NCBI RefSeq assembly: GCF_041886205.1
Contig: NZ_CP169029.1
DNA length: 64,000 nt
Source of the DNA: Escherichia coli
GTDB taxonomy: Bacteria > Pseudomonadota > Gammaproteobacteria > Enterobacterales > Enterobacteriaceae
Direction: 5' to 3' (one strand)
Part shown: positions 4,900 through 17,394 of the stretch, in pieces
Layout: every line of letters starts with the position of its first letter
Position numbering within the stretch: position 1 is the stretch's first letter
Program-made: the position numbers and the translations under genes
Notes under the pieces: generated by a model
Told to the model about the DNA's origin: nothing
Databases searched by the model: none
The model's input: the letters and a program-made list of their open reading frames with translations, nothing else

Positions 4900-5080
<181 letters not shown>

Positions 5081-5142
5081 CCTCTCATCTGTATAAATTT
5101 CGAACTACACTTAACTGGCTTCTCTTAACTGAGGTCACCATC

Positions 5143-7548: not shown

Positions 7549-7552
7549 ATCG

Positions 7553-7645
7553 TAGGTCGGATAAGACGCCCCGGCGTCGCATCCGACAATGTGCAGGCGT
7601 TGATGCCGGATGCGGTGCAAGCACCTTATCCGGCCTACAGACCGG
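7553..7645. repeat. REP/BIME element
   Basis: GTAGGTCGGATAAGACGC...GCATCCGACA and GCCGGATGCGG...CTTATCCGGCCTAC palindromes between phnD and phnE. Confidence 0.85.
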
Positions 7646-12871: not shown

Positions 12872-12962
<91 letters not shown>

Positions 12963-15773: not shown

Positions 15774-16532
15774 ATGAGCCTGACCCTCACGCTCACCGGC
15801 ACCGGCGGCGCACAGGGCGTTCCGGCATGGGGCTGCGAGTGTGCGGCCTGCGCCAGAGCGCGGCGCTCGCCGCAGTATCGCCGCCAACCGTGCAGCGGCG
15901 TAGTGAAGTTTAACGACGCAATCACCCTGATCGACGCCGGGCTGCACGATCTCGCCGATCGTTGGTCGCCCGGATCGTTCCAGCAGTTTTTGCTGACGCA
16001 TTATCATATGGATCACGTCCAGGGGCTGTTTCCGCTGCGCTGGGGCGTTGGCGATCCGATCCCGGTTTACGGCCCGCCGGATGAACAGGGCTGCGACGAT
16101 CTGTTTAAACATCCGGGCCTGCTTGATTTCAGCCACACGGTGGAACCGTTTGTGGTGTTTGATTTGCAGGGGTTACAGGTCACGCCCCTGCCGCTCAACC
16201 ACTCAAAACTGACCTTCGGTTATCTGCTGGAAACGGCACACAGCCGGGTGGCGTGGCTGTCTGACACCGCAGGCTTGCCGGAAAAAACGCTGAAATTTTT
16301 ACGCAATAATCAGCCGCAGGTAATGGTGATGGATTGCAGTCACCCGCCGCGCGCGGATGCACCGCGTAATCACTGTGATTTAAATACCGTGCTTGCGCTG
16401 AATCAGGTTATCCGCTCGCCACGGGTGATTCTGACCCATATCAGCCACCAGTTTGATGCGTGGCTGATGGAAAACGCACTACCGTCAGGGTTTGAGGTGG
16501 GGTTTGATGGGATGGAGATTGGGGTGGCGTGA
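15774..16532 (+). CDS. phnP: Phosphodiesterase PhnP (metallo-beta-lactamase fold)
   Basis: 252 aa with HxHxDH motif ([10 protein letters not shown]). Confidence 0.9.
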
Positions 16533-16552
16533 TGAGAGGGAATGTGCGCGCT

Positions 16553-16660
16553 GGCCCCCTCACCCTAACCCTCTCCCCAGAGGGGCGAGGGGACCGATTG
16601 TGCTCGATATTGAATATTGCGCTCGTTTTCTCCCTCTCCCCATTGGGGTGAGGGGCGATG
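16553..16660. repeat. Two C-rich/G-rich imperfect palindromes in the convergent phnP-yjdP gap (possible bidirectional terminator or small repeat-family element)
   Basis: CCCTCACCCTAACCCTCTCCCCAGAGGGGCGAGGGGAC at ~16557-16594 and CTCCCTCTCCCCATTGGGGTGAGGGGCG at ~16630-16657; each can fold as a GC-rich hairpin. Confidence 0.5.
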
Positions 16661-16678
16661 CCTGCTCCATACCCAACC

Positions 16679-17008
16679 TCATCGCCCATACTCATCTTCC
16701 ATTCTCCGCTCTTCATCCTCCAGTTGCCGACGCTCCTGATCAAGCTGGCGCTGGCGATCGTCCAGCTGCCTGCGGCGATCTTCAAACTGGCGGCGGCGGT
16801 CGTCATATTGTCTGCGCCGATCGTCGCTCACTTCACGCTGCCAGCCGTCGTCGCGCGAATCTTCATAGTCTCGCCCACGGTCAGGGTTATAAGCGTCATT
16901 AATCGCCTGCTGAATATTGCCAATGGTGTCGTCGATAATATCGGCCTGGGCCGGAACGGTGGACAGCGTGAGCAGGGTGAATAAAAGAAATAGCGGAAAG
17001 CGTTTCAT
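16679..17008 (-). CDS. yjdP: Small secreted protein YjdP (109 aa)
   Basis: Signal peptide MKRFPLFLLFTLLTLSTVPAQA followed by a repetitive D/R/Q/E-rich region (RRQYDDRRRQFEDRRRQLDDRQRQLDQERRQLEDEERR). Confidence 0.8.
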   Translation of the reverse strand: MKRFPLFLLFTLLTLSTVPAQADIIDDTIGNIQQAINDAYNPDRGRDYEDSRDDGWQREVSDDRRRQYDDRRRQFEDRRRQLDDRQRQLDQERRQLEDEERRMEDEYGR

Positions 17009-17076
17009 TAGCCAACCTCAAAAAGAAACTCTATCCACATTAATCATTACTCATCCATGCAAGTAGTGGATGAATC

Positions 17077-17394
17077 TCAATTTCTCCGCTGCTCTATTGC
17101 CGTAATCGCCTCCACGCGTTGTTGATGACGACCGCCTTCGTACTGTGCGCCCAGCCACGCATCCACAATCATTTTTGCCAGTTCGAGGCCAACCACTCGT
17201 GAACCAAAAGCCAGTGCAACTTCACTGGCGTAATGCGGATAATCAGTGCGCTCTGACGACCTGGTTTCTTTATCAATCCCCTCACTCATTGACCATGAAT
17301 AAAAGGCTGGCACAGCAACACAGAATCCTGCGGTGCCAGCGACATGACCGCCCATTGCTCCGGTACGTTTTTTAATAAAAAACACCGGTTGCAT
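17077..17394 (-). pseudogene. rpiB: Remnant of ribose-5-phosphate isomerase B (rpiB): C-terminal half retained, internal in-frame deletion, non-RpiB N-terminus
   Basis: The 105-aa ORF contains SSERTDYPHYASEVALA fused directly to FGSRVVGLELAKMIVDAWLGAQYEGGRHQQRVEAITAIEQRRN. Both match remembered RpiB but with ~58 intervening residues missing, and the first ~36 residues do not resemble RpiB. Confidence 0.6.

Follow-up and report, generated by a model that had tools for sequence, protein, structure and literature searches.

The window, a 64-kb stretch of DNA, is E. coli K-12-like. The convergent genes phnP and yjdP are separated in it by a gap of 146 bp (16533-16678; Table 1), corresponding to NC_000913.3 4,314,198-4,314,343, an interval for which the RefSeq annotation contains no feature. 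An initial annotation had reported two related palindromes in this gap, and both quoted sequences were found, CCCTCTCCCCAGAGGGGCGAGGGG at 16569-16592 (palindrome 1) and CCCTCTCCCCATTGGGGTGAGGGG at 16632-16655 (palindrome 2). The two palindromes form a direct repeat with 88% identity. Their spacing, originally given as ~75 bp, was measured as 63 bp start-to-start, with a 39-bp gap between them; a distance of 74 nt fits instead a pair of outer complementary arms, at 16556-16568 and 16643-16655, which are 92% complementary. A degenerate pattern for the pair gave 2 matches in the 64-kb window, versus 0.01 expected from shuffles.

The palindromes had also been described as distinct from the REP elements elsewhere in the window, and this was borne out. 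A search with the REP consensus, allowing up to 3 mismatches, returned five matches in the window and none at 16533-16678, and membership of the REP/BIME families was rejected for lack of a consensus match in the gap. Two of the REP elements (4947-4982 and 5047-5082) lie on the same strand, 100 bp apart, and are probably one BIME-like cluster.

Examination of the gap revealed a third block, CCCCTCACCC, at 16556-16565, upstream of palindrome 1, which the initial annotation had overlooked. Its sequence is complementary, too, to the G-blocks of both palindromes, forming inverted repeats with them. With this addition the left element is no simple palindrome but a C-C-G unit of three blocks, and the three-block layout is the defining feature of the BoxC family. 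BoxC is a GC-rich non-coding repeat, dispersed between the genes of E. coli and other enterobacteria, among which Enterobacter asburiae is rich in it. The same repeat family carries four names: BoxC, PIT, TMECO (PMC4666352) and HPGQ, with the classes HPG1 and HPG2 (PMC5100583). BoxC goes back to Bachellier, Gilson and Hofnung in the 1990s and the PIT elements to Hoyne, Maher et al. (2000, 2002), and the motif was equated with both by Holder et al. in 2015 (PMC4666352).

A regular-expression search with the TMECO consensus, 5'-CCCTCNCCC N3-6 GGGNGAGGG N3 GGGNGAGGG-3', matched the left element (copy 1) on the minus strand at 16557-16591. The core of copy 1, read on the minus strand from 16556-16591, is CCCTCGCCCC-TCT-GGGGAGAGGG-TTA-GGGTGAGGGG. 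Both its sequence and its coordinates are those of TMECO #22 (MG1655 4,314,285-4,314,320; type A, one mismatch; PMC4666352, Table 1 and supplement), for which that supplement lists distances of 88 nt to yjdP and 23 nt to phnP, and it is HPG1 #51 of Kaplan et al. 2016 (midpoint 4,314,309; PMC5100583). The identical 36-mer occurs in three more K-12 TMECO copies (#9, #16 and #19; four in all), and 23 strict-motif copies have been published for K-12 (PMC4666352).

Among the readings offered by the initial annotation was a copy of a small dispersed repeat family, to be checked by a genome-wide search for further copies. That search was run, and the reading proved correct. The 146-nt gap served as a blastn query on 5426 complete genomes of E. 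coli, of which 5413 gave matches, with a median of 13 BoxC-like places per genome (range 1 to 24; 14 in K-12 strains), and all BoxC loci fetched were intergenic. A permissive E-value scan of 16300-17100 against Rfam returned only chance-level miRNA and snoRNA matches (E > 2), and no bacterial family. In the blastn search the total came to ~63,000 BoxC-like places, of which 25 lie on plasmid records (e.g. NZ_CP074792.1, a 154,743-bp record, 1629-1664); Holder et al. reported no association of the element with plasmids (PMC4666352).

Table 1. Features of the phnP-yjdP region and REP elements of the window (window coordinates)
Feature	Position	Strand	Description
REP element	4947-4982		canonical
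REP element	5047-5082		canonical
REP element	7552-7587		canonical
REP element	12924-12959		canonical
phnP	15774-16532	+	convergent with yjdP
Copy 1 3' tail	16540-16555	-	GAATGTGCGCGCTGGC on + strand, ..GCCAGCGCGCACATTC on element strand; 7 nt past phnP stop
Copy 1 core	16556-16591	-	intact, type A, consensus match; TMECO #22, PIT element, HPG1 #51
9-bp direct repeat GAGGGGCGA, left copy	16580-16588	+	deletion endpoint in O157-type strains
Copy 1 5' flank	16592-16605	-	GACCGATTGTGCTC on + strand; type-A flank GYRCWCRRTCGGTC conserved
AT-rich spacer	16606-16619		14 nt, GATATTGAATATTG
Copy 2 5' flank	16620-16631	+	CGCTCGTTTTCT; type-B flank GCGCTGGTTTTCT
Copy 2 core, collapsed	16632-16655	+	CCCTCTCCCC-ATT-GGGGTGAGGGG; hairpin only
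9-bp direct repeat GAGGGGCGA, right copy	16650-16658	+	other endpoint of 70-bp deletion
Copy 2 tail, degenerate	16656-16668	+	CGATGCCTGCTCC; 10 nt before yjdP stop; weakly conserved
yjdP	16679-17008	-	convergent with phnP
REP element	38303-38338		canonical

To define the anatomy of the units, 18 BoxC units, taken from the five K-12 doublet loci in the literature and from several further copies, were aligned in one orientation. Conservation reaches past the 36-nt core, into a 5' flank and a GCGCGCAC-type tail. The unit spans ~60 nt, and runs from a short 5' flank through a C-block and a loop to a G-block, then through a 3-nt loop to a second G-block and on into a GCGCGCAC-like tail; a length of 56 bp has been given for BoxC (PMC2267715). 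The 3-nt loop is TTA in type A and CCG in type B. Type-A cores are preceded by the flank GYRCWCRRTCGGTC (K-12 loci L012-L016, plus L003, L004 and L028), and type-B cores by GCRC..GTTTTCT (L003, L005, L012, L015 and L028), while the tail motif ..CAGCGCGCAC.. follows the third G-block in most of the 18 units. Apart from 7 nt on the phnP side, the 14-nt spacer and 10 nt on the yjdP side, the gap consists of two BoxC units. The spacer between the conserved 5' flanks varies in length and sequence from doublet to doublet.

The right element of the window (copy 2) did not match the three-block consensus in the regular-expression search. In strain EC21Z-151, the gap is 158 bp long, and its right element is a full type-B unit, CCCTCGCCCCATTGGGGAGAGGGCCGGGGTGAGGGG, which matches the consensus. 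The K-12 form is what remains of the EC21Z-151 allele once 12 nt (AGAGGGCCGGGG) are removed, and its junction has GGGG microhomology. Judged from this sequence comparison, copy 2 is a type-B BoxC, in which G-blocks 2 and 3 have been fused by a 12-nt deletion, leaving a plain hairpin. Copy 2 is intact at this locus in a minority of strains. The site was counted as a single TMECO, and is not among the five K-12 doublets (PMC4666352). Loss of the three-block layout in copy 2 accounts for its being a single TMECO in Holder et al. instead of a sixth doublet, and for the right element being uncatalogued. What is new here is the identification of palindrome 2 as a decayed type-B partner, giving six K-12 doublet sites compared with the five published.

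To survey variation at the locus, alleles were counted by junction-specific megablast against the 5426 genomes, and gaps were extracted from fetched representatives. At least seven length alleles were found (158, 146, 95, 76, 42, 34 and 27 bp). The K-12 type of 146 bp, in 3018 genomes, lacks 12 nt of the intact form at GGGG. The intact 158-bp allele, the long reference form, is present in about 110 genomes (at most 359), an approximate count, as the 37-nt intact type-B probe gave 359 matches, 110 of them at an identity of at least 99%, and the lower-identity ones probably represent other type-B loci. An allele of 95 bp in 99 genomes lacks 63 nt of the intact form and has 0 other differences from it; its junction has GAGGG microhomology, and the flanking PhnP and YjdP proteins carry the same accessions as those beside the intact allele. 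The 76-bp allele of O157:H7 and relatives (353 genomes) is the K-12 type minus 70 nt, with the deletion junction inside the 9-bp repeat GAGGGGCGA (Table 1).

Two of the shorter alleles retain opposite ends of the long form. The 42-bp allele, which is rare, preserves the left end alone, and the 34-bp allele (638 genomes) the right end alone. Their local alignment scores against the long form are 71 and 49-51, respectively, compared with a shuffled maximum of 21-26, and the two have nothing in common with each other (local alignment score 7). As one keeps only the left end and the other only the right end, with nothing shared, the long doublet is ancestral to both. In one genome with the 42-bp allele (L007, E. 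coli Z1323CEC0016, 413-742), yjdP is annotated as a pseudogene with an internal stop. The 27-bp allele of B2 strains such as ST131 and ATCC 25922 (1010 genomes) does not fit a single deletion cleanly, since this model leaves 12-16 mismatches; its similarity to the long form's left end is weak, at 12 collinear nt (p about 0.01). The 27-bp allele was likely derived by deletion, with less certainty than the other alleles.

Most of the alleles are thus linked by single deletions between short repeated G/C blocks, with some junction microhomologies being short (3-5 nt). In ~30% of E. coli genomes, those with the 27- or 34-bp allele, neither hairpin is present and nearly the whole element is gone. 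The K-12 form is retained unchanged in 56% of genomes, a share that speaks against extreme instability of the locus over short timescales.

Inverted pairs of type A and type B are present at five other K-12 sites. The A'-spacer-B composite also occurs at lldD-trmL in K-12, and at an unrelated strain-specific locus with 80% identity over 115 nt. The doublet between hrpB and mrcB (K-12, L012; alleles L039, L040 and L041) is equally polymorphic. An O111 allele lacks 64 nt of the K-12 form, lying between 9-nt repeats (GGGAGAGGG), and shows 0 other differences from it, so that one perfect hairpin is left; the shortest alleles (93-bp) keep only a GACC..AGCA flank remnant. Holder et al. described, in general terms, a 'palindrome effect' and a category of 'TMECO mutated or missing' (PMC4666352), and the deletions at phnP-yjdP and hrpB-mrcB are instances of these.

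Outgroup loci were collected from GTDB representative genomes, using YjdP as the anchor. This search returned no E. albertii or E. fergusonii locus, and the closest outgroups with the convergent phnP/yjdP pair were Citrobacter and Trabulsiella. Their phnP/yjdP loci keep the gene pair and contain no BoxC-like motif there; in Trabulsiella and C. amalonaticus the phnP and yjdP stop codons overlap (CGTTAATCC). Since the element is missing in the outgroups and present in Escherichia, it entered the gap in the Escherichia lineage, before the examined lineages diverged. The gap of Citrobacter koseri (L038, about 1790-1850) holds a REP-like palindrome, GTAGGCCGGATAAGGCGCAATGCGCCGCCATCCGGC, which is not BoxC; the same gap has been colonised by different repeat families in different genera. 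In six Citrobacter spp. loci (L019, L020, L022, L025, L031 and L033) the yjdP-phnP gap is about 600 bp, versus 0-80 bp in others.

In Escherichia sp. E1V33 (L028, 1828-3071), a BoxC doublet adjoins yjdP. Its type-A copy lies next to yjdP, swapped relative to K-12, and the spacer, longer at 87 nt, contains a duplicated flank. The phnP gene of this strain is reduced to a 3' remnant of ~20 nt abutting the doublet, followed by phnO and a yjdN-like gene, and most of the phn operon is gone. In E. whittamii (L017) and E. coli SCPM-O-B-8794 (L021), the 3' end of a yjdN (phnB)-like gene (..VPWMINVVKQQ) directly follows yjdP (1828-2150), and the whole phnC-phnP operon is absent together with the BoxC pair. 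Neither a target-site duplication nor a clean empty site was seen at phnP-yjdP or hrpB-mrcB, and the outgroup sites were too diverged for element boundaries to be defined. At both loci the shortest alleles keep end remnants, which marks them as deletions, not pre-insertion states.

The initial annotation had also offered an R-loop or structure-prone site as a reading, and had proposed prediction of folding energies, which was carried out with ViennaRNA and gave stable stems on both strands. The minus strand of copy 1 folded (hairpins only) with -12.9 kcal/mol as DNA and -32.5 kcal/mol as RNA, and copy 2 formed a DNA hairpin of -8.7 kcal/mol (z -3.45). The RNA stems were predicted at -23 and -21.7 kcal/mol on the plus strand and at -32.5 and -19.4 kcal/mol on the minus strand, and the whole gap as RNA at about -64 kcal/mol (z about -3) on either strand. 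As RNA, the elements would give the phnP and yjdP transcripts stable stem-loops in their 3' untranslated regions, and one may speculate that the stems slow 3' exonucleases, by analogy with REP elements.

Published experiments bear on the structure of the DNA. A G-rich oligonucleotide near-identical to copy 1 folded in vitro into an intrastrand triplex that was stable, as shown by CD and NMR (Tm 70-82 °C; PMC4666352); judged from the control oligo, the published type-A mismatch oligonucleotide differs from copy 1 by one loop base. Ion-dependent G-quadruplex versus hairpin forms were seen by CD (PMC5100583), and PIT elements block DNA polymerase in vitro, according to the summary in PMC4666352. 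In the presence of the complement only the duplex formed, and in-vivo DMS footprinting showed no protection and no stable triplex in cells (PMC4666352). The description as structure-prone is therefore upheld by the triplex and G-quadruplex formed in vitro by near-identical oligonucleotides, but does not extend to a stable triplex in vivo.

Two functional readings depend on these structures. The stems could be a bidirectional terminator, as the initial annotation had proposed, or a protective 3'-end hairpin for the converging phnP and yjdP transcripts. The site between convergent genes, the stable RNA stems on both strands and the folding of the whole gap all fit such a role, and a terminator role was suggested for HPG1, with 6 of 16 copies lying between convergent genes (PMC5100583). 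Of the features of an intrinsic terminator, however, the gap has the GC-rich stem-loop and not the U-rich tract 3' of the stem: no U-run follows any stem on either strand, and a promoter/terminator scan of both strands of 16533-16678 returned nothing, a terminator-like site included. In vivo, PIT elements had no promoter or terminator activity in reporter assays, and no effect on RNA polymerase or conjugation, within what PMC4666352 summarises from Hoyne, Maher et al. The 3'-end mapping supplements of Adams et al. 2021 (PMC7815308) contain no phnP or yjdP entry. Neither hairpin is present in the ~30% of genomes with the two shortest alleles, and related genera, some with overlapping stop codons, lack the element. 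Taken together, the terminator proposal was not supported, and we regard such a role as improbable. The other reading is a regulatory DNA switch, in which the G-rich strand would alternate among duplex, hairpin, triplex and G-quadruplex forms, modulating local transcription or replication. It can draw on the published triplex and G-quadruplex forms, and on the G-blocks GGGAGAGGGTTAGGGTGAGGG, which fit a four-run G3 motif. Formation of the duplex alone with the complement, the lack of DMS protection in vivo, the lack of any consistent orientation or gene association (PMC4666352) and the free loss of the element at phnP-yjdP argue against it, and make a switch very improbable.

The remaining alternatives concern where the element came from. 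The BoxC doublet may be a non-autonomous MITE- or REPIN-like unit, moved in trans by a putative, possibly lost, hairpin-recognising transposase. Such a unit would fit a strictly intergenic, multi-copy family with conserved unit ends, recurring as inverted doublets of type A and type B, with the same composite at an unrelated strain-specific locus. Other genera lack the element at the orthologous site, the number of places ranges from 1 to 24 per strain, and the inverted units qualify as terminal inverted repeats, with outer arms that are 92% complementary. Against this, no target-site duplication or clean empty site was seen at either locus examined, and Holder et al. saw no connection with mobile elements (PMC4666352). 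We consider a mobile origin of this kind unlikely, and note that it concerns origin and is compatible with decay by deletion. To our knowledge, no transposase goes with BoxC. At the other extreme, the palindromes could be chance GC-rich sequences, unrelated to each other or to anything else. Each arm is short, and nothing else favours this reading. It was rejected, with a likelihood that is practically nil, given two matches where 0.01 are expected per window, thousands of related copies in E. coli genomes, and an exact match to the catalogued, published family.

We consider it highly probable that the feature is a head-to-head BoxC doublet in the course of erosion, and most likely a selfish or neutral structured repeat rather than a terminator. 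The doublet was present before the examined E. coli lineages diverged, and has since been eroded repeatedly by single deletions, whose endpoints fall in short direct repeats that come from its own G/C blocks. The microhomology at the junctions suggests that the deletions may have arisen by slipped-strand or microhomology-mediated events, and hairpin or other non-B folding of transient single-stranded DNA probably favours them. The G-rich strand of copy 1 presumably lies on the lagging-strand template of the right replichore, where it could fold during replication. The deletion junctions and the allele relationships are established, and we infer the mechanism and the role of structure. A bolder version holds that the inverted A+B doublet, and not the single 36-nt motif, is the functional unit of the family, a REPIN-like non-autonomous mobile element, which colonised the formerly abutting phnP and yjdP stops in an Escherichia ancestor and acts as a self-erasing deletion hotspot. 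This version is tentative and rather doubtful; if true, the seven or more natural length alleles would be a ready series for studying structure-driven deletion and any effect on convergent transcription.

The initial annotation had placed the palindromes near a breakpoint-prone als/rpiB locus. In EHEC, the island OI167 replaces the allose (als) locus between yjcS and yjdP (PMC10128022), and the replacement does reach up to yjdP. Its boundary lies on the 5' side of yjdP (window about 17077 onward), away from the BoxC pair. Since this is the far side of yjdP, a connection of the repeats with the edge of the als/OI167 replacement was rejected. In the O157-type strain E. coli ERL03-1416 (L002, 1175-1456), a hybrid sensor histidine kinase adjoins yjdP, instead of rpiB.

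The feature is already known, having been published under four names with its exact copy tabulated twice, and the only additions here are the decayed type-B partner and a locus-level allelic series showing decay of the repeats. The identification keeps the site from being annotated as a terminator, and the allelic series offers concrete, locus-level support for the association with local genomic instability that the literature claims for these repeats. As a discovery its importance is small, and the role and spread of the family are a minor question.

Comparison with known systems places the left element firmly in the BoxC/PIT/TMECO/HPGQ family, with which it shares the 36-nt sequence, the coordinates, type A with one mismatch, the flanks, the intergenic site and the inverse pairing with a type-B copy; the right element differs in being uncatalogued and in having lost the three-block layout. 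Like REP, BIME and REPIN elements, BoxC units are short GC-rich imperfect intergenic palindromes, often in inverted pairs and often at the 3' ends of genes, but the two groups have no sequence similarity, and only BoxC has the three-block architecture. We know of no RAYT-type transposase for BoxC, and of no binding by gyrase, IHF or Pol I. With Rho-independent terminators the pair shares a GC-rich stem-loop just past the stop codons, between convergent genes, whereas the BoxC stems lack a U-tract, and also the A-tract/U-tract pair needed for bidirectional action. In contrast to H-DNA, triplex and G4 fragile sequences, BoxC is short (36 nt), interrupted and not a long homopurine tract, and its structure is seen in vitro only. 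With these sequences it shares purine/pyrimidine-skewed mirror or inverted blocks and the formation of non-B structures in vitro, as well as local sequence variability (PMC4666352), which appears here as deletion junctions inside the repeated blocks.
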